From Hyaloraphidium curvatum SAG 235-1 (Eukaryota > Fungi > Monoblepharomycota), in NCBI GenBank assembly GCA_025558095.1, contig JAIVFI010000042.1:186001-250000 (forward strand): DNA of 64,000 nt, written 5' to 3'. Of the stretch, positions 47,848 through 64,000 are shown piece after piece (positions within the stretch are counted from its first letter, which is position 1; each line of letters opens with the position of its first letter). Under the pieces are notes generated by a model. It did not search any database, was not told the DNA's origin, and saw only the letters and a program-made list of their open reading frames with translations. A program made the translations under genes and the position numbers.

Positions 47848-49154
47848 TGCGGGACTTTGAAGGCGGTGGGTGGGCGCGGTTTGACCCGAGGGGAAGCCCG
47901 ACTTCTGGTTTAGTTTGAGGTCCCTCCTGGAATCTCTGCTGGGCTGCAATGAAAGTTGGAAAGGTCCTGGGAGGCACCTCATTGGAAACCGTTCATGGGG
48001 CGCCTCGCCAATGTTCCTCCTGCTCTATGCGCTACTACTACATGTGCTCAATCTTTCGTGCGCCGCCTAGAGGTCCCGCCGCGCTCACTCGATGGTCCAC
48101 GCTCGTCCGACCTGTTGCTCCTCCTAGCCTTGCGCCACGCTCTTCCGCGCATCCACACTCTCCGCCCGTCGGCTCCACTCCACTCGTCTGCCATCATCTA
48201 TTATGCTTGCTCCAGACCGCTATTCTCTCCCCCGGCGACGCTGACCGCCGCGTCACCAACGCCTCACGGTCCCGCGGTCCCAGTTTCCCCGAGACCCCTT
48301 GCCGCACGCACGTCAGGACCGCAATCTATCCCGAAAAGGCTATGCTCGACGTTATTTTAGGCTTTGATCGATCTCGGGCATTTGCCCCGGACGCCGCGTC
48401 AGCCCGATCGCGGCCGCTCCCTCCCGCTCGCCGCCCCACACGCAAATCCCTCCCGCCCTACAGCCCGCCAGCGCCGGCCCGCTCGCCGCCTTCAAGAACA
48501 CGCCCGCGAGACCCGACCTCCCGGCCGCAGCGGCCCCGCCGACCCCCAACGCCCGTCAACAACCCCACTCACCTGTTTCCTCCTTTCCACTCCTTCCTCG
48601 TCGCCCTTCACCAACGCCGCGCCAACCATGAACAACGGCAACGCTCAACAGGCAACGCTCAACAGGTTAGTACCCTCTCGCGTGGTCCGGGTCTGGGGTC
48701 TTGGTCTATGGGGTCGCCGCCGCCGAGGTCGGGCTGCCGAGGCGCGCCGGTACGTTCCCCTGCTCCTGGGAGTTTGCGGATCTCCCCCTAGTCGACGCCG
48801 GCGTAACGGCGTGGCACCGTCTGCTGTTGGGGCGGACTGTTTCAGCCCGCGCAGACCGGTTGGCGCACTGCACAAAGCGGAAATGCTAGGCCACAGACCG
48901 CGAAGGTACGCCGTCTGCTCGTAGCCCACACGATAGACTCGATGATGGCGGCACAAGCCCTTTCCGTGATCCTCCTAGGTGGGGCCCGGGCCTTGGGAGT
49001 GATCTTACCCTGCCCGGCAGCGTACATGCGCCCCAGGCCATCAGGGACTCGCGTCACTCTCAACTGACTCAACTTGACCCCCGCCATCCACTGCTGTCGC
49101 CGCCTCCGTAACTCCGCGTTGCTCTGCCTTTGGCCGCCTACAGCGAGCCCGAGT

Positions 49155-49630
49155 TGCGAAGGTACAGGACGTCTGACATTCGGACAAGGGTATTTTCATT
49201 TTCGGTTCGGAGGCGTGGAGGCGTCGGTCCTCGCGATCGACTCGTGATCGACTCGCGATCGACTCGCGAGTGACTCGCGAGTCACTCGCGAGCGACTCGC
49301 GAGCGACTCGCAAGTGACTCGGCACAGCCACCCTCCTGGGATATATAAAGAGCGGGACATGTAACAGTACAATCTTGATCGCCAGTTGACTCTACGTGCT
49401 CTCCGTGTCGTTCGACCACCGTGCGGAACCCCGCCCGGCCGGATCCTCGTTCTGAGAGCCCTTGGGACGCACCCCGGGAGACATCCCGTAACCTCTTTCC
49501 CCCGGCTACAGTCAAGTATCTTCAGCGCTGTTCGCTTATTCATATTCAGGGCCTATCCGACCCGAAGAGCCGAGCGGGATTCGCGCGCCGGGTTAGAGCT
49601 TCAGGCCCGGTTCCGACCCGGACCGTCGCA
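49155..49630 (+). repeat. 5' LTR (476 bp)
   Basis: TGCGAAGGT...ACCGTCGCA (8/9 terminal inverted repeat); matches 59334-59809 with no differences seen. Confidence 0.97.
49230..49349 (+). promoter_or_regulatory. LTR U3 array of ~8 x 11-bp GACTCGCGA(GT/TC) units followed by TATATAAA
   Basis: 11-nt periodic repeats at 49230-49321; TATATAAA at 49342-49349. Confidence 0.8.
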
Positions 49631-49631
49631 C

Positions 49632-49649
49632 TGGTCCGACCTCCGTGAT
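49632..49649 (+). other. Primer-binding site, 18 nt, tRNA-Tyr type
   Basis: TGGTCCGACCTCCGTGAT, 1 nt after the LTR; its complement ends AGGTCGG-A-CCA (C1:G72 and A73, the eukaryotic tRNA-Tyr acceptor identity). Confidence 0.7.
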
Positions 49650-49797
49650 CCTGCTCTCGGGTCTTCGACACCTCGTTCGACTTCAGTTTCGACTTCGATA
49701 ATCCAAAAACAACTTCGCCTGGCACCGGCGCTTGTCGACTGCCACTCTTTTCTGTCAACCGTATTCCGTCAACCAAGTTCATTCCCCTTCGCCAAAC

Positions 49798-51453
49798 ATG
49801 GACCCCGTTCAAGAAGCCGCCCCTCAGCAGGAGGTTCAGCAGCCTCAGGAAGCTAACGATTTGCAGAACAACCCGCAGGCCCAGGCGATTATCCAAGCTG
49901 CGCAGGCCGCGATCCAGCAAGTCGGCGCCGCCGCCAACGACGTCGCCCAACTCGCCGCCCAGCAAGCCGCCCAGCAAGCCGTCGCCGATCAGCTTGCCGC
50001 TCAGCTCGTGGCGCAACAGACCGCTCAGCAGTTGCCAGCTGCCCAAGTTCAACAGCAAGCCGCCGCCGAGCAGCTTGCAGCGCAGCAGCTCCAGCAGCTC
50101 GCCGCACAGCAGCAGGGTCAGCGGAGCGAGCAAGCCCCGGCTGTCAACGCTGCCGCCGCTGGTCTCCAGCCGCAGCAGTTCGTCGACGCCGTACGGGCCA
50201 TCGTTGGCGCTCAGCCGCCGAACGATGGAAGCACCGGCCTCCCCCAGGCGGATCGCCAGGGCGGAGCCGCCAAGCTCCCGGCTCAGCTGCTGCCTGCTTC
50301 TGTTCAGCCCTTCGATCCCGCTACGCAGGACCCGGAAGACTTCTTCCGCGACCTCACTACGGTTCTCACGGCGTTCGGCTCCATCAACAACCTCGTCAAG
50401 GTCTTCCCGGTCTTCCTTGGGCCTCTGCCGCGCGCAATGTGGCACAACATCACGCCGCAGAACCGCCCTCCGGACTATCCCGCGACGGCCACCTATCCTC
50501 CGGTGACCCAGAACGATGTGCTTGCCTGGCTACGCTACCACTTCGAGCCCCGCGACGCATCGATGCATTATCGCCGGCACTACAACACGATTCAGATGAC
50601 CAACGATGAGACCCTCGACGCCTTCGTTGCCCGCGTATCCCTGGCCGAGACGCGTTTCCTCTCGCACTGCGGCGATCAGCTTCCTACCAGGGAAGTGCAA
50701 GACAGCGTGTACGGCCAGAACCTGCTCTATGGACTGCGCCCGGAGCTACGCGGGAAGGCGCTGGAGCTCCTCGGGGATCACCTCATCAACCGCACTTCCG
50801 TCACCAAGGTCATCGAGAAGATGCGCACCGTCATGCAAGCATCGGGCCCTGCGCAGCCGCGCGACATCCGTTTCCTGGGCCAGAACTCGATTTCGGAGAT
50901 TCCGGCTCTGGTCGGCCAGCACTCGTCTTCGGGCTCCTCCAAGGCGACCGACAAGGCGACGACGGAAGTGCTGCTGGCTCATACGCAGGCTCTCACAAAG
51001 CTGCTGGAGCCTAAGGGAGAGCGCAGGCCCACCGGTGGACCGCCGGGGGAGTCTGCGTTCCGGCCTCCGCGCCGTTTCGTCCCCTTCCAGTCTCGTCGGA
51101 GCCAGCCGTTGCCGCCTTCGGGGCCGAACAGCGACCTCGTCGAGATCAAGGAGCTCATCACCAAGCTGCTGCCGTCGCCTCGCCATCAGGTTCAGGCCGC
51201 GGAGACCAGGTCGAACCCCCCCGCGAGGCCTCCTCCGATCGATCGGCCCCGCCAGCAGCAGGAGCGCCAGGATCGCCGGCCCTTCACCTCGGAGTACCGC
51301 GACCAGAAGCGCTTCCAGCCTCGCCACTGCCATCTCTGTGGCATGGATGGGCATGCTCAGGACGAGTGCTGGGAGTTGGAGAAGAATGCCAACCGCCGCC
51401 CACTCAACTGGAAGTCTCGCCTCGGCAACACCCCTTCGATGCCAAAAAACTAG
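49798..51453 (+). CDS. gag: Gag with Q/A-rich N-terminus and CCHC zinc knuckle
   Basis: MHR-like IQMTNDETLDAFVARV; CHLCGMDGHAQDEC. Confidence 0.93.
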   Translation: MDPVQEAAPQQEVQQPQEANDLQNNPQAQAIIQAAQAAIQQVGAAANDVAQLAAQQAAQQAVADQLAAQLVAQQTAQQLPAAQVQQQAAAEQLAAQQLQQLAAQQQGQRSEQAPAVNAAAAGLQPQQFVDAVRAIVGAQPPNDGSTGLPQADRQGGAAKLPAQLLPASVQPFDPATQDPEDFFRDLTTVLTAFGSINNLVKVFPVFLGPLPRAMWHNITPQNRPPDYPATATYPPVTQNDVLAWLRYHFEPRDASMHYRRHYNTIQMTNDETLDAFVARVSLAETRFLSHCGDQLPTREVQDSVYGQNLLYGLRPELRGKALELLGDHLINRTSVTKVIEKMRTVMQASGPAQPRDIRFLGQNSISEIPALVGQHSSSGSSKATDKATTEVLLAHTQALTKLLEPKGERRPTGGPPGESAFRPPRRFVPFQSRRSQPLPPSGPNSDLVEIKELITKLLPSPRHQVQAAETRSNPPARPPPIDRPRQQQERQDRRPFTSEYRDQKRFQPRHCHLCGMDGHAQDECWELEKNANRRPLNWKSRLGNTPSMPKN

Positions 51454-51491
51454 CTTTGCCCTCAGTGCCGCACGGCCATAGGGGGGCAGAG
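51444..51491 (+). other. -1 programmed ribosomal frameshift signal
   Basis: A_AAA_AAC immediately before the gag TAG; pol is in the -1 frame; downstream stem 51454-51463 pairs with 51482-51491. Confidence 0.85.
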
Positions 51492-54400
51492 ATCCAAGCT
51501 CTTGAACCACATGTGGAACCTCTTCCTGGAACTTCCCCGCTGCCGGACGGCACGGACCCTTCATCTCCTGGCGGATCGCCGGAGTTGTCGGATTCCGCGA
51601 CCGATGAACCGACGGCGGAGGACCACGTTCATCATTGGCCCTTCGGGGGCACGGAGTACATCCTCTTCCTCGAGGCGGAGGCAGCTCGACAGGCCGCCGT
51701 TCGTCAGCAGCGGGAGGCGCTCATGCCGATCGACGAGACCCTGGCCCCGCCGCCGGCAGCGGATTCGGCGTCGCCCGGCTCGGTCGAGGTCGTGGGAAAC
51801 GGTGAACCGGCGGCACAGGATGCGGACGCGGGATCAGCGGATGCACCTATGCACGAGGGCCCGACCGTCCGCGCCGTTCCCGGACCTTTCGAAAGGCCCC
51901 CTCCTCCTTCCGCCTACGCACGACCACCGCTGCCTGGCCCTCGGCCTCGCCCGCGGCCACCTGCTCCGGTCGCCCCTCCGCCGGATCGCTGGACGTGGAC
52001 TTCGCAAGTGCAGTTCCACTATCAGGCGGCACGCGTTTCGGCATGGGTCAACGGCGTGAATACCCCCGCGGCCCTCGTCGACTCCGGTGCCTCAGTGGTG
52101 GCGGTTCGGTCGTCCTTCTTCTGCCGGATCCACCCGTCGCCACCGATCAAACCATGGACACTCGGCACCCTCAGCACGGCCGCGGCCGGCGGAACCATGT
52201 GGGTCCGCGGAGTTGCTAAGATGGACATCCTGGTCGGGAATCAACACTGCGTCATGGACGTCGCCATCATGGACGGTCTCATGGACGACGTGATCCTCGG
52301 CACCCCTTGGCTCTCCGCCCTACGCGTTCAGATGGACTGGGAGACGCCGGTCCTCTATTTCAAGGACGATCCGGAGGGGGTCGTCGTGCCAATGCACATT
52401 GTTGCGCGACCGCTCTTCGGATCACACCTGGTCGCCCCGCTCCATTCAACCACCTCCATCACGGTCTACCCCAACGAGGACGTCTCGATCACCGCTGAGC
52501 TGGCCCCGACGACTCCCTTGGCGACCGTCGTGGAGATGGACTTGACAGGGGTCATCGAGACGCCGAACACTTCGCCGTTCGATCGCCTCTTCATCATCCC
52601 GTCGGCGACGCCCGACAGAGACGGTCGGCTGCCGATTCTCATCCGCAACTACGGGACGACACCGGTCACGATCGGCCCGGGCACCCACCTCGGCCGCTTC
52701 CGCGTGCGGATTCCTGGATTTCTCGCTCCGGAACCGCCCACGTATCTGGCTCCCGCGCAGATCTCGATGCTGGAGCCCGAGCTGCCCCACACCGAACCGG
52801 CCGAATCCACGCTCACGGTCGAGGAGACCATCGATCTGTTCGCGGTGCCCTCGCCGGGATCGATTGGACCACCTCAGCCTCCCGGCGTGGAGCCTCCTCC
52901 GGTCGAGGCTATCGAGCTCAAGATGGACCAAACGATCCTGAGCGAGGGGGACAAACCTCGTTTCCATAAGCTCTGCGACCGCTACCGGGACGTGTTTGGT
53001 CCTTGGATCGGCAAGCTGCGCAACCATCGCTTCCGGATCGACACGGGCGACCTCAAGCCGATCCACCAGATGCCGTACCGGACCCCGTTCCGGCTTCGCG
53101 GGGAAATGGACAAGATCATCGACGACCTGCTCGTGCAGGGCGTAGTCGTCCCCTCGCGAAGCCCCTGGGCCACGCCCTGCATCATGGTGCCAAAAGGGCA
53201 CGGCTCGGGCGAATGGCGCCTGGTGATCGATTACCGGAAGCTCAACGCCGCCACCAAGCGCGACGTCTACCCGATGAAGAACCCAAGCGACACTCTCGCT
53301 CTCCTCAGCGCGGCCAAGGTGTGGAGCGTTTGCGACATCCGCTCCGGCTTTTGGCACGTGGAGGTGGCCGACGAGGACAAGGAAAAGACGGCCTTCACGA
53401 CGCACCGCGGTCTCTACCAGTGGGAGCGGATGGCCATGGGCTTTACCAACGCTCCTGCAACCTTTGCTCGGATCATGGACGAGCTCCTCGCCGGCCTCCA
53501 GTGGTACTGCTTGGTGGTCTTCATCGACGACATCATTATCTTCTCGCAGACGGTCGACGAGCACCTCGTGCACCTGGAGCTCCTCTTTGACCGACTGCGC
53601 GAGGCCGGGATGACTCTGAAGCTGGCCAAATGCAAGTTCTTCCGCCGCGAGGTCAAATACCTCGGGCATTACGTCACCGCCGACGGCCTCAAGGTCGACC
53701 CCGAGAAGACCCGCGCGGTGGACCAGTTCCCCCGCCCAACGACCAAGAAGGAGCTCCAATCGTTTCTCGGCCTCTCCAACTACTATCGCCCCTTCATTGC
53801 CGGCTACGCCAACATTGCCAGCCCGCTCACCCGCCTGACGCAGGACGGCGTCTCGGTCTCTCGGGCCTGGGACGACGCATGCGAGGCCGCCTTCCGTATG
53901 CTAAAGGAACGGCTTACGTCGGCGCCCGTGCTCCGTCGCCCCGACTTTTCCAAGCGCTTCGTCTTGTTCACGGATGCCAGCGATATCGGCCTCGGCGCGG
54001 TGCTCAGCCAGCGGGACTCCGATGGCAAGGAGTACGTCATCGCCTACGCCAGCCGCGCTCTGCAGCCGAACGAGCGCAAGTGGGACACTCGGGAGCGCGA
54101 AGCCCTGGCCGTTGTTTGGGCATGCGAGCATTTCCGGGCGTATTTGATCGGGGACGAGTTTGAGGTGGTCACCGACCATAGCGCCCTCAAATGGCTCTTG
54201 GAGACCTCCAAGCCGGGCCGCCTACAGCGCTGGATCCTCCGGCTCTCGGACTTCAGGTTCCAGATCATCCATCGCTCGGGCAAAGCGAACTCCAACGCCG
54301 ACTTCCTGTCTCGTCAGCTCGTGGCGCCGTCGCCCGACGAGGACGTGCCTATGGGCGACCCCGAGGAAATCTTGGACATCCCTGCCTTTTGGCCCCCAAA

Positions 54401-56501
54401 CCCTCCCGACCCCTTGCCTTTTTCTTCTTTTTCTGGGGGGGGACGGGCGCCCGGATTCCTCTCCGGGAGTGATCTCGGTCAGACTTCCCGTTCTTCGTCA
54501 ACCCCAGTCACCGAGTCAGACTCGGGACGAGCTACTGCGGGTTCCTCAGTCAATTGTGAATCAATGGAGCGAGTGCTGTCTGGCACGGAGTTCCCGGCCA
54601 CGGTTGCCGCAGTGGAGGGAACCCTGTGGAGCGATCCGGGGACCCTGCCCGAGGCTGCGGCACCGGAGACGCAGATCCTCCTGCCGATCCCAACGACGAA
54701 CGCACAGGTCGACCCGGCAGACGTGCCTGAGCGAGACCTGGCGTTCCTTCATCCGGCACTGCTTGAGGTGCTACCCGATGTCGGGGGCATCAGTGCTATT
54801 GACCTTGCCGACGTCAGATCCCGGGATGCCCTGCGCAAAGTGCAAGAAGCCGACGTCGAGACCAGCGCGCTGATCCGCTTCGTGCGAGACGGGGAGCTCC
54901 CTCCCAACGTGAATCTGGCCAAATTCTGCAAGAAGTACGGCGAGCAGTACTTCCTCGCTACGGACGGCGTGCTCTGCCGGCGCGATGTACTCGCGACTGG
55001 TACCCGTCGTATCCCGGTCACCCAGCTCGTGATACCGCACGAGCTGAGGGAGGCCTACCTGCAACGTGCGCACGACGATCCCCTGAGCGGGCACGTCGGG
55101 CGACACCGGGCGTACAGCAATCTGCGGCGCCGCGTATATTGGGTCGGCATGGCGCACGACGTTCGCCGCTGGACGCGAGCCTGCCTTACATGCATGACCC
55201 GGAAGATGCCTTCGGTATCGAACCAGGGCTTACTGAAATCGGTTCCTCTCACAGGTCCCAACGAGGACATCTACATCGACTACATCGGCGAGATCAATCC
55301 GGCCACGCCCCGCGGCAACAAGTACCTTCTCGTCGTCTACGATCCGTTCACTAAATGGGTCGCGGCGTATCCGACTCCGGACCTCTCTGGGCCGACGACG
55401 GCGAAGCTGCTCTATACGCGATGGATTCTCGAGCACGGTCTTCCGAAGCGGATTCACCACGACAACGCCTCGAACCTGGACAACCATTACATGGAGTACC
55501 TGCTCAAGCTACTCGGCATCAACCGGGGCCTGGTCACGGTTGGGCATCCCAGGGCTTCCCTCGCGGAGCGCCCGAACCGGTGGATCATCGACGCCCTGAG
55601 CGCAGCGGTCTCCAAGAACTACCAGACATGGGACGAGGACATCGTGGGGGTCATCTTTGCCTTCCGGACCTCCATCCACGCGACGACCGGCGAAACTCCG
55701 TTCTTTCTGATGCATGGTCGGGATGCTCGTATTCCGCTCGACCTACTTTACGACGAGACCGAGATTCGCGAGCCAGTGCACCTGCGGGCCAGCGACGAGG
55801 AGGACAAGAAGACAGAGGATGAGCGCCGGCGGACCTACGTCGTGGAGCTCGTGGCGCAGCTTCGTGCGGCCTACGACCTGGTGGCCGAGAAGATGGCCGC
55901 AGCGGCGGAGACTCGGAACGCCAAGGCCAACGCTACCCGGCTTCCGATTACCTTCCGCCCCGGCGACCTCGTGCTCATCTGGGGACCAGAACGACCGCGC
56001 AAGGGCGAGCCGGGCAAGTTCGTCTCTCGTTATCTTGGGCCCTACCGCATCGAGGAGTCAGGCCACACCGAGCTCACCTGGAAGTGTAGACACGTCTACG
56101 AGACCGACCACGTCACCACTGTGCATGTGGACCGGCTGGCGCGCTACAAGCCTTGGGAGTCGGCCACCTTCAACGCGCGCTCGTGGAACGCACGCGCCCC
56201 GGAGCTCGCCGCCGGTGAAGAGCTCGATCTCTCGGAACCGGTGAACGAGTTCGAAGAGGAAATCGAGGTCGAGAACGCGCTTGGGAACGAGCAGGAGTAC
56301 ACCGTCGAGGACATCGTCGGCCACGAGGGCCAGGGTCACGGACTCAAGTTCGAGGTCAAGTGGCGGGGCTTCGCTCGCACGACCAAGCTCCCTCTGGACA
56401 TGTTGCACGGCGCCATAGGGATCGTCCGCGCCTATGCCGATCGCGTTGGTCTCCAGCTCCCGACGGGTCTCCCCAGGCGCATGCGGACTCGGCGTCGCTA
56501 G
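51444..56501 (+). CDS. pol: Pol: aspartic protease, RT, RNase H, integrase, chromodomain (intact)
   Basis: ALVDSGAS; RLVIDYRKLN, MGFTNAPATF, FIDD; TDAS...E...TDH; HHCC plus D,D,E; GPY motif; YTVEDIVGH...FEVKWRGF. Confidence 0.97.
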   Translation, partial: KKLALPSVPHGHRGAEIQALEPHVEPLPGTSPLPDGTDPSSPGGSPELSDSATDEPTAEDHVHHWPFGGTEYILFLEAEAARQAAVRQQREALMPIDETLAPPPAADSASPGSVEVVGNGEPAAQDADAGSADAPMHEGPTVRAVPGPFERPPPPSAYARPPLPGPRPRPRPPAPVAPPPDRWTWTSQVQFHYQAARVSAWVNGVNTPAALVDSGASVVAVRSSFFCRIHPSPPIKPWTLGTLSTAAAGGTMWVRGVAKMDILVGNQHCVMDVAIMDGLMDDVILGTPWLSALRVQMDWETPVLYFKDDPEGVVVPMHIVARPLFGSHLVAPLHSTTSITVYPNEDVSITAELAPTTPLATVVEMDLTGVIETPNTSPFDRLFIIPSATPDRDGRLPILIRNYGTTPVTIGPGTHLGRFRVRIPGFLAPEPPTYLAPAQISMLEPELPHTEPAESTLTVEETIDLFAVPSPGSIGPPQPPGVEPPPVEAIELKMDQTILSEGDKPRFHKLCDRYRDVFGPWIGKLRNHRFRIDTGDLKPIHQMPYRTPFRLRGEMDKIIDDLLVQGVVVPSRSPWATPCIMVPKGHGSGEWRLVIDYRKLNAATKRDVYPMKNPSDTLALLSAAKVWSVCDIRSGFWHVEVADEDKEKTAFTTHRGLYQWERMAMGFTNAPATFARIMDELLAGLQWYCLVVFIDDIIIFSQTVDEHLVHLELLFDRLREAGMTLKLAKCKFFRREVKYLGHYVTADGLKVDPEKTRAVDQFPRPTTKKELQSFLGLSNYYRPFIAGYANIASPLTRLTQDGVSVSRAWDDACEAAFRMLKERLTSAPVLRRPDFSKRFVLFTDASDIGLGAVLSQRDSDGKEYVIAYASRALQPNERKWDTREREALAVVWACEHFRAYLIGDEFEVVTDHSALKWLLETSKPGRLQRWILRLSDFRFQIIHRSGKANSNADFLSRQLVAPSPDEDVPMGDPEEILDIPAFWPPNPPDPLPFSSFSGGGRAPGFLSGSDLGQTSRSSSTPVTESDSGRATAGSSVNCESMERVLSGTEFPATVAAVEGTLWSDPGTLPEAAAPETQILLPIPTTNAQVDPADVPERDLAFLHPALLEVLPDVGGISAIDLADVRSRDALRKVQEADVETSALIRFVRDGELPPNVNLAKFCKKYGEQYFLATDGVLCRRDVLATGTRRIPVTQLVIPHELREAYLQRAHDDPLSGHVGRHRAYSNLRRRVYWVGMAHDVRRWTRACLTCMTRKMPSVSNQGLLKSVPLTGPNEDIYIDYIGEINPATPRGNKYLLVVYDPFTKWVAAYPTPDLSGPTTAKLLYTRWILEHGLPKRIHHDNASNLDNHYMEYLLKLLGINRGLVTVGHPRASLAERPNRWIIDALSAAVSKNYQTWDEDIVGVIFAFRTSIHATTGETPFFLMHGRDARIPLDLLYDETEIREPVHLRASDEEDKKTEDERRRTYVVELVAQLRAAYDLVAEKMAAAAETRNAKANATRLPITFRPGDLVLIWGPERPRKGEPGKFVSRYLGPYRIEESGHTELTWKCRHVYETDHVTTVHVDRLARYKPWESATFNARSWNARAPELAAGEELDLSEPVNEFEEEIEVENALGNEQEYTVEDIVGHEGQGHGLKFEVKWRGFARTTKLPLDMLHGAIGIVRAYADRVGLQLPTGLPRRMRTRRR

Positions 56502-56571
56502 TAACACCAACGACGTCTATCCGGTCACAGCACTACCATCTCTGTGCTCCGATCCCCGGCTTTTCACTGAC

Positions 56572-57557
56572 TCAAACCCGACGTACTACCTCGAGCCTAT
56601 CCTCGACCCCCTCGAACGCCAACTTGTGATACCCGGACTGAAAATGCGTGTTCAGATTGCCCAGGAGGCCCTTAGCCTTGTGCTTTACCAGATGGCACCA
56701 CGGGAACGAGCATACCGCCACTTCGCCCTTGGTGGGGCTCCGGTACAGTTCGCCGGCGTACGTTCCGGCAATCTTCCATCGGAGGAAGGAGCCTGCCGGC
56801 ACGGCATCAGGGACCTTCTTCGTCACCCGTTCCGCCTTCAAGCCCCAGACCGGCGACGACTTCTTCATCTGGCACATTCAGTGACGATCAGCGCTTGTGG
56901 GGCGTACTCCCGTCGAGCCGTTCACCTGCGCAATCTGCTCCCGGGCCTCCCCGCGCTGCACCACATGCCCCTCGTCTTTACCTGAAGTTGCCGTTTGGGC
57001 CGTCTGGAAGGCGCTCCCTTGTTCAGTGGCGGCCTCGAAGTCGCCTAAGTGGTCCAGCTCCCAAGAGGGCGCATGAAGCGTGACTGACAGCACGGGGACT
57101 TCGTCGGCCGCCTCGAGCTCCTCCCTCGAGTCCGCCGCCGACTCGCCCTCGCCGACGGAAGGCGCACCCTTCGACGACATCGCCGGCAGGAAGACGCCGG
57201 AGGTCCGGGTTGCGGCCGCGGCCGCGATCGGGTCGTTGCCTCTGGCCCCGCCAGCCTCGCGCAGCTTGGCGGTCCCGCCGGCCTCGCGCAGCTCGGCGAC
57301 GAGCCGACGGAGCACTCGGACCTCGACAACGACGTTCCCAGCCTCTTCGGCCAGCGGCAACATCCCGCGCATGGCGGCCAGACGCACCAGTTGCAGGAAG
57401 CAGTCGACCACGTCGTCCTCCTGGCGCGGCGCTGAGCTCCCGTTCGAGGACCACGCCGCTACGCTCTTACCTTGGTGCACAGCAGGACGTCGAAGGTCGG
57501 CAACCGAACCTCGAACCACGAACTCGGCGGGACGACGTTCGGCAGCTCCGCACTCAT
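56572..57557 (-). CDS. Antisense three-exon accessory gene (~292 aa) with C-terminal BED/C2H2-like zinc finger, inside the retrotransposon
   Basis: Exons 57557-57471, 57420-56926 and 56868-56572. Phase-0 introns of 50 nt (GTAAGA..CCAG) and 57 nt (GTGAAC..CTGAT..CCAG) each remove a stop. Motif CSFPWC-x16-H-x5-H (GNLNTHFQSGYH). Confidence 0.68.
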
Positions 57558-57696
57558 GACAGGCGCGGAGATCCCCCCAGCTCTTCTGGACCCTACGTCG
57601 CGATCCCCCGCGAGCGCTTTCGTCGACGCAATGGCGTACGGCCCTCGCTCGCGCCCCGTCCCCCGTGGCGGGGACTGGTGACCCGGTGTGCGGGCG

Positions 57697-57857
57697 AACT
57701 CGCGGTCGACTCGACTCGCAGTTGACTCGCGGTTGACTCGCGGTTGGCTCGCGGTTGACTCGCAAGTGACTCGCGAGTCACTCGCGAGTCGCTCGCAAGT
57801 CACTCGCGAGCGACTTGCGATGCACTCGCGAGTTGCCTGCGCTTCGCACCATATAAG
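57697..57857. promoter_or_regulatory. Internal array of ~12 x 11-bp LTR-type GACTCGCG repeats plus CATATAAG; putative bidirectional promoter
   Basis: Same unit as the LTR array (gtgactcgcgagtcactcgcgag is shared exactly); lies between the ATG at 57557 (-) and the ATG at 57926 (+). Confidence 0.75.
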
Positions 57858-57925
57858 CGGCGGACCACAGGAGGCCGCGGCCGCGGACTACGCACCCAAC
57901 GTCGACCTCGCCGCTACCGTCTCCC

Positions 57926-59191
57926 ATGGCGACCCCCACGACTGCCGGCCACAACCTGCGGCCCCGCCGGCCGCATGTGGCCACGGCGCCGCCGCCGGCG
58001 ACTGCGCCCGTCGCTGCGTTGCCTGGCGTCGTACCCCCGGACTATCGGTCGGCGCTTGCCTCCCTCTCGACCCGGCTGGACGACCTCCGGGCCGACCTCG
58101 ACGTCAGACACTCCCAGACGACGGCCCACTTGCACAAGGTCGAGCAGGCCGCCTTCTCCGCGGTCATGCCCATCCGCGCAGCCCTCGACGCACTCCACCC
58201 GGTGCTCAACACCCTCGTCAATGTCGGCAACCTGGAGCAGCACGCTCTTGACCGCGTAACGGCGACGCTCGAGCAGCAAGAGGCCCGCCTGGACGCCCAG
58301 ATCCGCCAGCAGCGTGACGAGCTCCAGGTGGTCCTCAGTGGCCGCCACCGCGAACTTGAGTTCGCCGTCACCGCCTTGCGCCGGACCGACGACGCTCGTC
58401 TCGGTGCCATCGAGACGCAGCTCGACCGGCTTGCGTTGGTGCTCGAGGCTCAACGTCAGAACTTCAACGGCATTCTCCTGGTGGACGAAGCTACCATCGA
58501 GGAGTTGAGGGAGTTCGGCTCTTCCCTCGCCGGGCTGGTTGCTCAGACCGGGACCAACCTCGAAACCACCATCGAGACCGTCGTCGAGACCAATCTCGCC
58601 CGTCACAACAATGGCCCCATGGCGGAGTTTGCGGCCGACCTCAAGAGCGTCCTGGCGGCCCATCTGCAGCGATTTGGGTCGGAGCAGCACAAGCAGCTCA
58701 TGCTTTCAGCTCAAGACCACACCACGCTCCTCACGGCCGGCCTGAACGCGCAGCGCGAGCACTTCACCAAGACCGCCGACGAGCAACGGGCCCTCCTGCG
58801 TCGCTTCCTCGGCAATCAAGTGGCTCCCCTGGCGGGGCAAACGACGCCCGCCGTGGTCACCTCCACGCCGGTCGGCCGCGTCAAGGACGAGGACCTCGTC
58901 ACCTCCGACGATGAGGCTGGGGATATGCAACCTCCAGCTCCTCGCCCCGAGAGCGTGTCCAGCAGCGACGCCTCCTCCATCGTCTCGCAGGACGACGGCC
59001 TCTTGGCCGCCCTGTACGACGACATCCCGGCCGCTCCCTACAAGTCGACCATGCCCCCGGTCTACACCCCCTCGGCCGCGGACGGCTCAGCCGTGCATGC
59101 CGCCTTCGCTCTCGGCTTTACCCGCCGGCTCCGCGCCCCGCCGCCGAGCGACGACGAGGCGGACGCCGACGTCGACTTTGAGGACGCCTAA
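57926..59191 (+). CDS. Retrotransposon ORF3: 421-aa helical/coiled-coil protein with N-terminal GHNLRPR motif and acidic tail
   Basis: Intronless ATG ORF ~70 nt after a TATA-like box; GC-ending codons like gag/pol; no signal peptide or TM segment. Confidence 0.85.
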   Translation: MATPTTAGHNLRPRRPHVATAPPPATAPVAALPGVVPPDYRSALASLSTRLDDLRADLDVRHSQTTAHLHKVEQAAFSAVMPIRAALDALHPVLNTLVNVGNLEQHALDRVTATLEQQEARLDAQIRQQRDELQVVLSGRHRELEFAVTALRRTDDARLGAIETQLDRLALVLEAQRQNFNGILLVDEATIEELREFGSSLAGLVAQTGTNLETTIETVVETNLARHNNGPMAEFAADLKSVLAAHLQRFGSEQHKQLMLSAQDHTTLLTAGLNAQREHFTKTADEQRALLRRFLGNQVAPLAGQTTPAVVTSTPVGRVKDEDLVTSDDEAGDMQPPAPRPESVSSSDASSIVSQDDGLLAALYDDIPAAPYKSTMPPVYTPSAADGSAVHAAFALGFTRRLRAPPPSDDEADADVDFEDA

Positions 59192-59322
59192 GCCACCCTT
59201 CGGCCCTACACTCTCCAACATCTGTTGTCTCCACCTCGGCCTTCAACATCTTCTACTGCAAGCATGACGTCACTCCGCGGAGGATCTTCGATTTCGTGGC
59301 GCCGAGGGCGGCGCCTTCTTTT

Positions 59323-59333
59323 GGGTGGGGGCG
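59323..59333 (+). other. Polypurine tract
   Basis: GGGTGGGGGCG directly before the 3' LTR. Confidence 0.7.
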
Positions 59334-59809
59334 TGCGAAGGTACAGGACGTCTGACATTCGGACAAGGGTATTTTCATTTTCGGTTCGGAGGCGTGGAGG
59401 CGTCGGTCCTCGCGATCGACTCGTGATCGACTCGCGATCGACTCGCGAGTGACTCGCGAGTCACTCGCGAGCGACTCGCGAGCGACTCGCAAGTGACTCG
59501 GCACAGCCACCCTCCTGGGATATATAAAGAGCGGGACATGTAACAGTACAATCTTGATCGCCAGTTGACTCTACGTGCTCTCCGTGTCGTTCGACCACCG
59601 TGCGGAACCCCGCCCGGCCGGATCCTCGTTCTGAGAGCCCTTGGGACGCACCCCGGGAGACATCCCGTAACCTCTTTCCCCCGGCTACAGTCAAGTATCT
59701 TCAGCGCTGTTCGCTTATTCATATTCAGGGCCTATCCGACCCGAAGAGCCGAGCGGGATTCGCGCGCCGGGTTAGAGCTTCAGGCCCGGTTCCGACCCGG
59801 ACCGTCGCA
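59334..59809 (+). repeat. 3' LTR (476 bp)
   Basis: Copy of 49155-49630; ORF-track translations inside the two LTRs are identical (offset 10179). Confidence 0.97.
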
Positions 59810-59847
59810 GAGTGGTGGCGCCGGAATCGCCTGTCGCTGTCTCCGCG

Positions 59848-61715
59848 ATGGCTCCTCCGCCCGAACAGTCCGACAGGATGGACGTCGACGACCATTCGTG
59901 CGTACCGCTCTCCACGACCTCCACGCCACCAATTCTGACGCTCTTATACTCAGTGATGACGACGTGGTGTTTCTCAGCGAGTTTGCTCCGGTCCGCTTCG
60001 CCCCGAGTTCTGCCCATATCAGCCCCCAGGACACACACACGCTCGCTATAGGCGCCTTCACCGTCAACGTCAAACCGCATCAAACGTTGTCGACCGAGGA
60101 AGTCGCTTTGCGCACAGACCGAATCAAGACCTACACCGATTCGGTGCTGTGGGCACGGGACCTCGTCTTCATTCAGGAACCTCTGGGCGACGCCGCCACG
60201 CTTGCTGGCAGGATGCTGCGCATGCCTGTCGATGCGCAACTATGGCGGTCGCATGTGGGCAACCGCCCAACCGTCTTTGCTCGCGCCGGCTTTGGAGGTT
60301 TTGAGCACGTTCACGTGCCTGACTTTGGCAGTTCCGCTCTGCTGCTCAGCACGCACCCCGATGCCTTTTCCGAGTTCATTTGGCTTTGCGGCGCATACCA
60401 CGTCAAACCTGAGCTCGGTGCCCTCGATGCTACCTCACGCTGTGCCTGGTCGTTCTGGGCCAACACGCAAGTTCCTGGCGTTGCACTTGTTGCCGCCTCG
60501 TTCTGGGGCCGCAAAAACCGATCCCGCGAGGGCGGGCGGCTCCCAGAGGGCGCAGATGGCATGGAACTGATCATGGCATTTGCGCTGGGAGCCATGCGTG
60601 TCTTGCGCACCAAGACCGGCTGTGACGTTGTTCTATGTCTCCTTGGTGGTGACGCGAACGACGACGGCACTTGGGTGACATGCATACGCAACCCACTGCG
60701 CGCCGGTGGCCGTTTGGAGAGCAAGTTCCACAGTCTCTCGGATGAGGCGCTCAGCCGAGATCTCGGCACCAAACGTAATGTCGACGGTCTGCTGTTGTGT
60801 GCTCTGCCGCCTCCGAACGCGGCAATGGACCGTTTGATTGGGCTGCGACGGCAGCACTGGGCACAAGGCGGTGTACCTGAGCGGATTGGCTCGCACCCCG
60901 TCGTTGGTGGTTGCTTCCTCGTGGACGTGCGGCCGCGTGCTGACGAGTGCGGACCTCTTCTCAAAGCCGAGGGTTCATTGCAGCCGGCAGACCAATTCGC
61001 CGATGTGGAAGGCACACCAGTGGAACCCGAACTGGTAGCGCCCCCAAGGTCCCCCATCACGTTGGACGGCGCTCAGGCCGCCCCCGGCCCGTTCTATGCC
61101 ATCACTGCCCCATCTTCCCCCCCGGCACCAGCGCAGACCGTGCGGGCAAGGGGGCGCCACCGGGGCCGCGCCGTGCCTGAGCCGAGGGAGAAGCAGGTTA
61201 GGGCAGCAACACCCGAGCACCTCAAGCTGGACCCCGACACCCTGCGTTCGACCATCATCAACGAGATGAAGACCGGCCTCATCCAGACTTTAATCACGAT
61301 GCTCCGAGAGACCGGATACACAGTGCCTGAGGCCGAGTCCTTCGCGATCCAATATCTCAAGAAACTCCACAACACCACGTATCAAACCCATGCCCAGCTC
61401 CGAAATCTCGACAGCAAGCGGTTCTATTGCGGACACAGGGGAGACACACCTGAGGCCTGCAAGAGTACCATCTCCTCGGAAATGCGCGGGGCCGGGTTTG
61501 ACACCTGCCACTCCGCCAACAAGGCCTTGATGGATCGCACCATGATCACAAACATGATAATCAGCCTGGAAGATGCCCGCCGGCTGATTCCGAACGCCGT
61601 TGCACGCTACGTCGATAGGGATGAGGCAGTGTGCAGTGTGCGCAACGTGCCCAAGGCGGATGGAAAGGGCAAGGGCAAGAAGGCGGCGGAAAGAGCCGGA
61701 TCGTCGTCGGACTAA
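59848..61715 (+). CDS. Exonuclease-endonuclease-phosphatase (DNase I-like) fold protein with unknown C-terminal domain; 5' end at or interrupted by the retrotransposon
   Basis: Ordered EEP motifs AFTVNV, DLVFIQE, LGGDAN, RNVDGLL, GSHPVV; intron ~59898-59953 (GTGCGT..CTGAC..CAG) joins MAPPPEQ..DHS to DDDVVF in frame. Confidence 0.6.
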
Positions 61716-61954: not shown

Positions 61955-64000
61955 TCACGGTCGCGGCTGGTTGATCGGCACGTAGTTGGACTCGCTGCCG
62001 CAGTTCGCGAAACAGATCCTGTTCCAGTTCCACAGCGACGTCGACGTGTACTCCGGCACGAACCTCCCCGCGAGATCGGGGTAGAACGGCAGCGAGGTGG
62101 CGTCCTGCGTCGCCCTGTTGCTCCAGAAGCCCAGGTTGGTCGCGGCGACGGCCTTGGTGTGCGGGCTGCGGCACCGGTCCGCGCGGCTCTGGGTCACGTT
62201 GACCCGGTTGAGGAGCCCCTGGACGGTGATGAAGTCCCCGGCGGCATTCCGGGCGCGGACAAAGTACGTCGCGTGGTTGGCGTTGATGTCCGCCTGGGCG
62301 GCCTCGTTGCCGCCGACCACGGTGTCCGTGATCGCCGTTCCCTCCTCGATCTGCACCGACGGGCCGATGAGCACCGCGGCCATCTGCACCCGCGAGAAGG
62401 TGGAGTACTCCGCGAGCGCGTTGCGGGGCACGTTGAGCAGGGCCCCGCGGGCGCGGTGGCCGTAGGTGCGGATGCGCTTCGCGACGACGTTGCGGTCGTC
62501 GAACGCCGAGCTGGCGAGCCCCGCATCGATGGGGTTACTGGCGAACACGCCCGTGCTGGGCAGCCCGGAATCGAGCACGATGGTCCATGTGTCGGGTGCG
62601 ACCTGCTGGGCGGACAGCACGCCCCTGCGGACGCCCGTCGTCTGCAGGTTGTCCTTGTGGAAGAACTCGAGCCTGTCGCCCGGCTTGATTTGGTAGCGCC
62701 AAAGCGGCATGTTGGTGATCGTCAGCGTCCGCCGGTCCGGCGAGACCGTGATCGGCGAAAACACCGTCGTCTGGTGGAAGTTGACCGCGTCGTCGCCCTG
62801 GTACGCGAAAGTCGAATCCTTGACCATGATGCTCCCCTGCGTCAGCGTCGACCACACCCCGTCCGCGGCCCCCGACATGGGCCTGGGGCTCGTCAAGCCG
62901 ACCGGGACGGGCACGTCCACCCTGAGCCTGTCGATCCACACCTGCTTGGAGCCCGAGCCGACCCAGACGGCCTTGCCGGGCACCGAGCGGACGAACACGT
63001 CGCGGAGGATGCAGTTGACGCACAGCCGGAGGCGGAACCCGTGCACCTCGTAGGTGAGGTGCTTGATCATGTAGAGCTCGCCCGGGACGGGGGAGCCGCT
63101 GCCGAAGTTGTTCTTCTGGTTGTCGAACGAGATGGTGAAGGTCGGCCCGATCATCGCGTTGGCGCTCAGGCCGCCGTCGGCGACGGTGAGGTTCTGCACC
63201 GAAAGCATCTTGGCGTCGGGGAAGTCGCCGGCATGGAAGCGGAGCATGCTCCCTTTGGGCGCGCCGATCAGCGGCTCGCCGTTCCTCTGCTGGCGCTTGC
63301 CCAGGCGGCGACGGTTCTCCTGGACCTCGGGCACGAGGTAGAACTCGTACCGACCGCGCACGCCGATGGTGAGGAACTGCGGGTCCACGGGATGCACGGA
63401 TTGGTACGCAAAGATGGTATCCGAGTCGACGACGCCGCCGGGGGTGGGCGGGGAGATGAAGGTGAAGGTCCAGCTGGTCTTGTTCCCCGAGATGGATTGG
63501 GACACGAAGCGCGTGAGCGAGGCGATCCGCCAGCGGTTCCCTGCGGGCCGGCGGAGCGGGGCTGTTAGTCGTCGAACGATGGACGCAGCCGAAGCATCCT
63601 CACAATCCCAATCGACCTGGAAGTTCAGAAAGCGGCAGCGGTAGCAGTTGTTGATGTCGAAGAAGGGCAGCGCCAGGCCGTCCTCGGAAAAGGGCCCTGC
63701 GTCGATAGATGCCCGGGTAAAGAGCAGCAGCGCGCCGTTGCCGACGATGGTAAAGTCGTGCAGCGCCCAGCCAAACTTCAAGTGGGTCAGCTGGTAGGTC
63801 TTGCCCGCGGTGAAGATAACCTCGCACGGCCCCAAGTTGCCCGTGGCGATCTCGTGGCATCGATCCAACATGTTCTGCACGTTCCAGGTGACGTCGCCGC
63901 CGTTGTCCGCGCCCCAGTTCCACGAGTACAGCTTGTAGGTCTTTTGCTTTGCGTTGGGCGGCAGCGGCTCGCGCATCGTCCAGTTGAACCACTGAAAAGT
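61955..64000 (-). CDS. Right-handed parallel beta-helix protein (pectin-lyase-like / GH110-like), 5' end outside window
   Basis: MSGAADGV, STFAYQGDDAVNFH, HRARGALL; repeating beta-helix pattern; probable in-frame intron near 63541-63604. Confidence 0.7.
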   Translation of the reverse strand, partial: TFQWFNWTMREPLPPNAKQKTYKLYSWNWGADNGGDVTWNVQNMLDRCHEIATGNLGPCEVIFTAGKTYQLTHLKFGWALHDFTIVGNGALLLFTRASIDAGPFSEDGLALPFFDINNCYRCRFLNFQVDWDCEDASAASIVRRLTAPLRRPAGNRWRIASLTRFVSQSISGNKTSWTFTFISPPTPGGVVDSDTIFAYQSVHPVDPQFLTIGVRGRYEFYLVPEVQENRRRLGKRQQRNGEPLIGAPKGSMLRFHAGDFPDAKMLSVQNLTVADGGLSANAMIGPTFTISFDNQKNNFGSGSPVPGELYMIKHLTYEVHGFRLRLCVNCILRDVFVRSVPGKAVWVGSGSKQVWIDRLRVDVPVPVGLTSPRPMSGAADGVWSTLTQGSIMVKDSTFAYQGDDAVNFHQTTVFSPITVSPDRRTLTITNMPLWRYQIKPGDRLEFFHKDNLQTTGVRRGVLSAQQVAPDTWTIVLDSGLPSTGVFASNPIDAGLASSAFDDRNVVAKRIRTYGHRARGALLNVPRNALAEYSTFSRVQMAAVLIGPSVQIEEGTAITDTVVGGNEAAQADINANHATYFVRARNAAGDFITVQGLLNRVNVTQSRADRCRSPHTKAVAATNLGFWSNRATQDATSLPFYPDLAGRFVPEYTSTSLWNWNRICFANCGSESNYVPINQPRP

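Follow-up and report, generated by a model that had tools for sequence, protein, structure and literature searches.

The window that we have analysed (the whole stretch of DNA, 64 kb in length) harbours at positions 49155-59809 a Ty3/Gypsy LTR retrotransposon which carries, between pol and its 3' LTR, two accessory genes, viz. the spliced ORF4 in antisense and ORF3 in sense orientation, separated by an array of short repeats. The general features of the element are the following.

49155..49630, plus strand: 5' LTR of 476 bp, with TG...CA ends
49230-49321: U3-type array of 11-bp repeats in the 5' LTR, with a TATA-like site at 49342
49632..49642, plus strand: primer-binding site, starting with TGG
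49798..51453, plus strand: gag, 551 aa, with a CCHC knuckle read from the sequence
51723..56501, plus strand: pol, with protease, RT, RNase H, integrase and a partial chromodomain
59319..59333, plus strand: polypurine-tract-like stretch 5' of the 3' LTR
59334..59809, plus strand: 3' LTR, without a difference from that at the 5' end
49151-49154 and 59810-59813: 4-bp target-site duplication, GAGT

The assignment to Ty3/Gypsy is based upon the order PR-RT-RH-IN between two LTRs and the presence of a primer-binding site, a polypurine tract and a target-site duplication, and the closest solved structure to pol in a search of PDB sequences is Ty3 Gag-Pol (E 2e-97). Because the LTRs are identical, the target-site duplication is present and both gag and pol are open, this copy is recent and intact. 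A slippery heptamer (A-AAA-AAC) is located immediately 5' of the gag stop codon, with pol in the -1 frame. The primer-binding site resembles what we presume to be the 3' end of tRNA-Tyr, and a search of the LTR for a self-priming match gave none. No Gag family match was obtained in a Pfam scan of gag, and the chromodomain-like tail of the integrase, a feature by which the chromovirus clade is recognised, matches Pfam Chromo at E 4e-4 over profile positions 1-27 of 53, which is below the curated cut-off. An Arg-rich tail (56484-56498, plus strand) ends the element's own Pol after the chromodomain and is a possible nuclear-import or chromatin-binding element. To the right of the element lies a long open frame (59970-61715, plus strand) that has no relevant Pfam match and contains motifs which we take to be reminiscent of an EEP-type endonuclease; the element is inserted just upstream of this frame or inside its 5' part. 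A host ORF of 673 aa (61955-63976, minus strand) likewise has no Pfam match, and its repeats, judged by eye, suggest a beta-helix protein.

On sequence comparison the element is an isolated Ty3/Gypsy lineage. The nearest integrase regions among the 32 proteins found by a Pol search are 24-33% identical to that of the element, the nearest RT-RH regions among 49 metagenome loci are at most 44% identical, and viral contigs yielded no relatives of Pol. Neither these 32 proteins nor the 49 metagenome loci are accompanied by an ORF3-like sequence.

The features of ORF3, which occupies the region nearest to the 3' LTR, are as follows.

57926..59191, plus strand: ORF3, an accessory protein of 421 aa, very probably not an Env
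57944..57970, plus strand: AGHNLRPRR, candidate acidic-patch motif (residues 7-15)
58037..58822, plus strand: predicted helical rod (residues 38-299)
58823..59188, plus strand: acidic tail rich in Ser and Pro, for which two short helices are predicted (residues 356-365 and 387-397)

The codon use of ORF3 fits that of a real gene of the element. Its in-frame codon log-odds is 0.37, and none of the other five frames exceeds 0.08. Its synonymous index (0.64-0.71) is similar to that of pol, on which the measure was not trained (0.66); the spacer gives 0.50-0.57 and shifted frames give 0.41-0.49. Residues 1-37, which include the motif, have a codon log-odds of only -0.10, yet this is the best of the six frames, and these 37 codons show a GC3 of 0.84 and a synonymous index of 0.64 vs. 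0.50-0.57 in the spacer. Met1 is the sole ATG from the array to the ORF.

A previous reading of this DNA, made from the sequence alone, had proposed that ORF3 occupies the position of env and nevertheless is not an Env, and the latter proposal is very probably correct. The protein contains no Cys, no Trp and no N-x-S/T sequon, and its top 19-residue Kyte-Doolittle window reaches 1.2, so that no hydrophobic segment is present; judged by hydropathy, the claimed lack of a signal peptide and a TM helix holds. The positional part of the claim is correct in that ORF3 is a sense ORF ahead of the 3' LTR, but it does not directly follow pol, from which it is separated by a gap of 1.4 kb (56502-57925) containing the antisense spliced gene and the repeat array. 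The arrangement of an N-terminal nonamer, a long helical region and an acidic tail, also proposed earlier, is recovered from the sequence and from a single-sequence structure model (mean pLDDT 52.8), in which the ends of the protein (residues 1-37 and 300-421) are of low confidence and mostly non-helical. The tail (residues 300-421, 122 aa) contains 22 D/E, 7 K/R, 13 S and 15 P residues.

It is highly likely that ORF3 is a coiled-coil oligomer, as had been supposed, in view of the modelled helix and of a homotrimer model of residues 36-300 that scored 0.53 vs. 0.00 for the best of 3 controls, the trimer being the only assembly tried. The predicted interface is of the coiled-coil type and spans residues 40-212 continuously and in addition residues 247-277; the trimer runs had at least 56% of contacts in common and a pLDDT of at least 65. 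Of 30 solved homo-pairs 21 attain the mark applied to this score, and of 23 single chains none does, a calibration made on two copies only, and long coiled coils may pass the mark through their likeness to solved ones.

Our searches indicate that ORF3 is an orphan at the sequence level. Its sole relative is P0001 from Hyaloraphidium curvatum, which is 99.7% identical across the common part, making this fungus very likely the host of the element, and which was the only match in a word-indexed search (7,995 candidates scored) and in a HMMER search over 1.84 billion representatives; metagenome and viral contigs contained no ORF3, and nothing significant was found in NCBIfam, PHROGs or PDB sequences. 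P0001 fuses an antisense integrase sequence (55150-54855) to ORF3 from position 58175 and lacks residues 1 to about 83, the motif included. Whether a rearranged copy or an erroneous gene model, it is uninformative regarding conservation of the motif. The best placement of ORF3 in the ESM Atlas (0.79) is a lead at most, and a Pfam match to Baculo_PEP_C (E 0.0014, below the cut-off) was taken to reflect a generic coiled coil and rejected as a family assignment. Foldseek gave a best viral match of E 0.1 and no match in the PDB. A VIA-align fold search returned generic long helices with a top Z of 8.2; HIV gp41 appears at rank 3 (Z 7.9, rmsd 10.8), level with dozens of coiled coils that are unrelated and score Z 7-8.

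The motif AGHNLRPRR is found where it had been reported, at residues 7-15, and its claimed likeness to the chromatin-binding site in the Gag protein of prototype foamy virus (PFV; residues 534-546) is real but incomplete. The PFV peptide, which binds the acidic patch, is described as GGYNLRPRTYQPQRYG, with Arg540 as the anchor and Tyr537 invariant (PMC12125541). Of the 8 residues of GGYNLRPR, ORF3 shares 6, the arginine anchor among them, but His takes the place of the invariant Tyr and the downstream foamy residues (TYQPQRYG) are missing, and unlike in Gag the motif is N-terminal and on a separate accessory protein. Arg12 occupies the position of Arg540 in PFV and of Arg582 in lamin A, and His9 that of Tyr537 and Tyr579, respectively; the Asn-Leu preceding the anchor arginine is retained (N10-L11-R12), whereas the Tyr expected three residues before the anchor is not. 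In the work on PFV, exchange of Tyr537 for Gln is described as lowering nucleosome capture about 5-fold without abolishing it (PMC12125541), and a Tyr-to-Ala variant as still bound to mitotic chromosomes (PMC6042332). The motif class extends beyond foamy Gag at the level of the YNLR core, which is also present in lamin A, whose YNLRS has been placed by cryo-EM on the acidic patch of H2A-H2B, its modest affinity being compensated by local concentration (bioRxiv 10.1101/2024.08.05.604734), and in plant NMCP1, whose RYNLRR was interpreted in the report concerned as a possible actin site (PMC3617829). Like lamin A and NMCP1, ORF3 pairs a long coiled coil with a disordered end that carries a YNLR-class motif. 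It differs from them in having no sequence homology and no Ig fold or CAAX that we could see, and in that its motif is in the head, its rod is modelled as a trimer and its gene belongs to a mobile element.

In 200,000 shuffles of ORF3, the pattern G[YHF]NLRPR did not occur, [YHF]NLR[PS]R occurred in 12 and the loose [YHF]xLRxR in 3,497, rates that flatter the motif as the patterns were written post hoc with His allowed. Within the six frames of the window, [YHF]NLR[PS]R has a single occurrence. Among the 32 Gypsy Pol proteins, YNLRSR ends one (0.011 expected) and [YHF]xLRxR is present within the last 60 aa of two (0.08 expected). Taken over the full length of Pol, however, the loose motif shows no enrichment (3 occurrences vs. 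2.3 expected), and a related pattern does not occur in the ORFs of the 49 metagenome loci, which amount to 59,765 aa. YNLRSR in P0028 (1986-1991) and YPLRDR in P0030 (1267-1272) lie near the C-termini, and RYP-x-R variants occur in several more Gypsy Pol tails; acidic-patch motifs of integrase tails may possibly form a wider class. For ORF3 itself, the motif would give binding to the acidic patch slightly less than an even chance. Its RPRR would also fit a plain basic or furin-type cluster, and chromatin tethering by ORF3 is something that we infer.

The antisense gene and the array that separate ORF3 from pol have the following features.

56572..57557, minus strand: accessory gene ORF4, in antisense, encoding 292 aa; exons at 57557-57471, 57420-56926 and 56868-56572
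57421-57470 (50 nt) and 56869-56925 (57 nt), minus strand: phase-0 GT-AG introns of ORF4, at contig joints of run X1
56626..56712, minus strand: predicted zinc finger, C-x4-C-x16-H-x5-H, in exon 3 of ORF4; BED-like as a lead
57697..57857, no strand assigned: internal array, about 12 units of 11 bp with the palindromic core ACTCGCGAGT, the unit being that of the LTR array
57850: TATA-like CATATAAG after the internal array

The contigs of a single run, X1, which is presumed to be RNA and whose contigs carry no strand, start or level, skip 56869-56925 and 57421-57470, and because removal of both minus-strand GT-AG introns joins the three exons, ORF4 is open over 292 aa. Its in-frame codon log-odds is 0.22 vs. 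at most 0.05 in the other five frames, its synonymous index is 0.64 vs. 0.66 for untrained pol, and the codon bias is element-like in every exon. Exon 3 contains the Cys2-His2 ligands and the upstream Trp of the zf-BED pattern, the detailed BED consensus used here being one that we assume. In the ESM Atlas this exon is placed at 0.92-0.94 near small clusters, of which that at rank 5 (0.92) has zf-BED on 12% of its members, with a recognition value of 2277 that is slightly below the 2300 mark. Its only match among PDB sequences is a KLF5 finger (E 0.42), a Pfam scan of the finger gave nothing, and the ORF4 model (pLDDT 39.8) is too poor for a fold search. Assignment of the finger to the BED type is thus a lead. 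In a search of longer proteins only, none of 36 candidates scored as a homologue of exon 3, nor was one found of exons 1 and 2 in profile scans (for exon 1, Pfam only) and in tblastn against the loci of Pol relatives. A match of exon 3 to L001 (E 0.015) falls inside an RT match and was dismissed.

Other X1 contigs bear upon the element as a whole. One of them crosses the array uninterrupted into the 3' LTR. Contig depth is 611 over ORF3, 38 over gag and about 1 outside the element, depths that cannot rank the genes; over the 3' half of pol (53655-56461) it rises from 38 to 130-190, which a long antisense transcript could explain, as could RNAs from deleted copies. A joint between 55298 and 57338 (2,039 nt skipped) has no GT-AG on either strand in 9 registers, which excludes an intron, and is probably due to a deleted copy; together with the inverted junction of P0001, it points towards further copies at other sites of the genome, which would be rearranged and probably non-autonomous. 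Low-depth, diverged contigs (about 80-90% alike) at 53232-53684 and 55238-55765 represent related Gypsy families in run X1, and the X1 matches listed include no diverged piece of ORF3.

ORF4 (from 57557) and ORF3 (from 57926) start on either side of the internal array and run apart from it, each start codon being the first ATG away from the array on its side, and the array is built from the same 11-bp unit that is present in 8 copies upstream of the TATA of the LTR. The core ACTCGCGAGT is a perfect palindrome, and all 7 of its exact copies in the window are in the LTRs or the internal array. With one mismatch allowed there are 17 matches vs. 3.1 expected (a count reached in 0 of 100 shuffles), and 15 of the 17 fall in the three arrays. 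The repeat includes the core TCG(C/T)GA bound by ZBED1; TCGCGA itself has 47 copies in this GC-rich window, 16 of them within the arrays. On neither side of the internal array does the sequence align to the LTR, and therefore the array is a copy of the repeat and not a nested LTR. Positions 57697..57857 are predicted to be a bidirectional internal promoter, the divergent transcription, and with it a sense mRNA of ORF3, being read from the layout because the contigs carry neither strand nor start and one of them spans the array unbroken, and it is likely that the ORF3/ORF4 cassette has an internal promoter of its own. The gene for the predicted antisense zinc finger and the LTR-type array, neither of which the earlier reading had noted, are a better clue to the function of ORF3 than the motif.

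Putting these observations together, we tentatively favour, at rather less than even odds, a mechanism in which a trimeric, nucleosome-docking ORF3 rod is combined with a two-gene regulatory cassette on internal LTR-type repeats. The internal array would fire both ways, driving ORF4 and ORF3. ORF4 would bind the ACTCGCGAGT palindromes in the LTR and in the internal promoter, giving feedback analogous to that of foamy Tas. ORF3 would form a parallel trimer with three weak arginine anchors clustered at one end, which would dock on the acidic patch of H2A-H2B with a gain in avidity, and the three acidic tails at the opposite end may help to keep the promoters of the element active against silencing. 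The narrower proposal, that ORF3 acts in transcription of the element rather than in tethering of the particle, is by itself rather unlikely.

The alternative that survives best, although somewhat unlikely, is that the motif is due to chance or is a nuclear-import basic cluster, with ORF3 serving, for example, as a particle scaffold or a sequesterer of host-defence factors. The replacement of Tyr by His, the frequency of the loose pattern among shuffles, the Arg-rich tail also present on the element's Pol and the lack of conservation data all agree with this, whereas the rarity of the six-residue pattern in the same shuffles and the location of the motif in a disordered terminus, which is typical of such motifs, argue against it. 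Distinctly less probable is a role of ORF3 in tethering the particle or the pre-integration complex to chromosomes with no part in transcription. That is the role described for the PFV Gag motif (PMC12125541, PMC6042332); the similar motifs in the tails of other Gypsy Pol proteins are in line with it, and a rod of roughly 170 residues would be suitable. However, the integrase already has a chromodomain-like tail, there is no evidence for binding of ORF3 to Gag or integrase, and the lack of enrichment over whole Pol proteins and the absence from the metagenome loci noted above also count against this role.

It is very improbable that ORF3 and ORF4 are passengers, either a captured divergent host pair or the remnant of a nested DNA transposon. 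The introns of ORF4 and its BED-like finger, a domain associated with hAT transposases (PMC7471704), could be so explained, and the CpG-rich palindrome could be a housekeeping promoter element of the host, but no host homologue of ORF3 exists among the 1.84 billion representatives, the spacer contains the LTR's own repeat unit, and both frames are intact and codon-biased. Barely credible is a degenerate Env, i.e., the core of a class I fusion trimer that has lost its signal peptide and anchor, for although ORF3 is a sense ORF ahead of the 3' LTR, its trimer model has a second helical interface segment, gp41 ranks third in the fold search and Tor elements are described as driving env by an internal promoter (PMC4402516), the protein lacks a hydrophobic segment as well as any Cys, Trp or sequon, gp41 scores no better than dozens of coiled coils unrelated to it and no viral fold match has E below 0.1.

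The favoured combination of a docking rod and a regulatory cassette has partial parallels in several known systems. The internal promoter of foamy viruses is described as serving two accessory genes, Tas and Bet, with Tas acting on both the LTR and the internal promoter (PMC6669543), and the present layout, in which a candidate internal promoter is joined to two accessory genes, one a putative regulator, would be analogous; unlike in foamy viruses the genes here are divergent, one being antisense and spliced, there is no env, and no homology is shown. For the plant elements Retand, Grande and RIRE2 and the fungal Boty, extra ORFs in sense or antisense orientation, together with tandem repeats, are described in the region that separates pol from the 3' LTR, and Grande gene23 has its own promoter and a nuclear product, while TRP28 is predicted to bind DNA (PMC7264820, PMC11963269). 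Retand belongs to a non-chromovirus plant lineage with TRP28, whereas the present element has a chromodomain-like tail, both a sense and an antisense gene, a BED-like finger and, internally, an array of the repeat unit found in its own LTR. The pairing of a finger, BED-type as a lead, with palindromic sites of TCGCGA core recalls ZBED1/DREF, human ZBED1 being a BED protein described as binding a palindrome in which the TCG(C/T)GA centre matters (PMC7471704). Unlike in ZBED1/DREF, the finger of ORF4 is at the C-terminus and an hATC domain was not found in the protein. We have found no published account of this combination of genes and repeats in the literature covered, to which subscription journals and supplements largely do not belong, and a transposable-element annotation of this genome may exist. 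It is unlikely, as a complete scenario, that a circuit like that of complex retroviruses has evolved here independently, in which a bidirectional internal promoter made of the palindromes of the LTR drives both a BED-type transactivator of these palindromes and a lamin-like trimeric rod holding the nucleosome acidic patch by the motif class of foamy Gag and lamin A, the two jointly activating the element or protecting it against silencing.

The roles of the extra ORFs of LTR retrotransposons are stated to be unknown in a review that suggests a regulatory part for them (PMC7264820). The element described here pairs a candidate DNA-binding protein with candidate sites in both of its promoters and adds a candidate nucleosome anchor, and hence it represents an unusually testable case for the function of such ORFs. 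If the anchor works, binding of the acidic patch by YNLR-class motifs, described for foamy Gag and lamin A, would extend to an accessory protein of a retrotransposon in an early-branching fungus.
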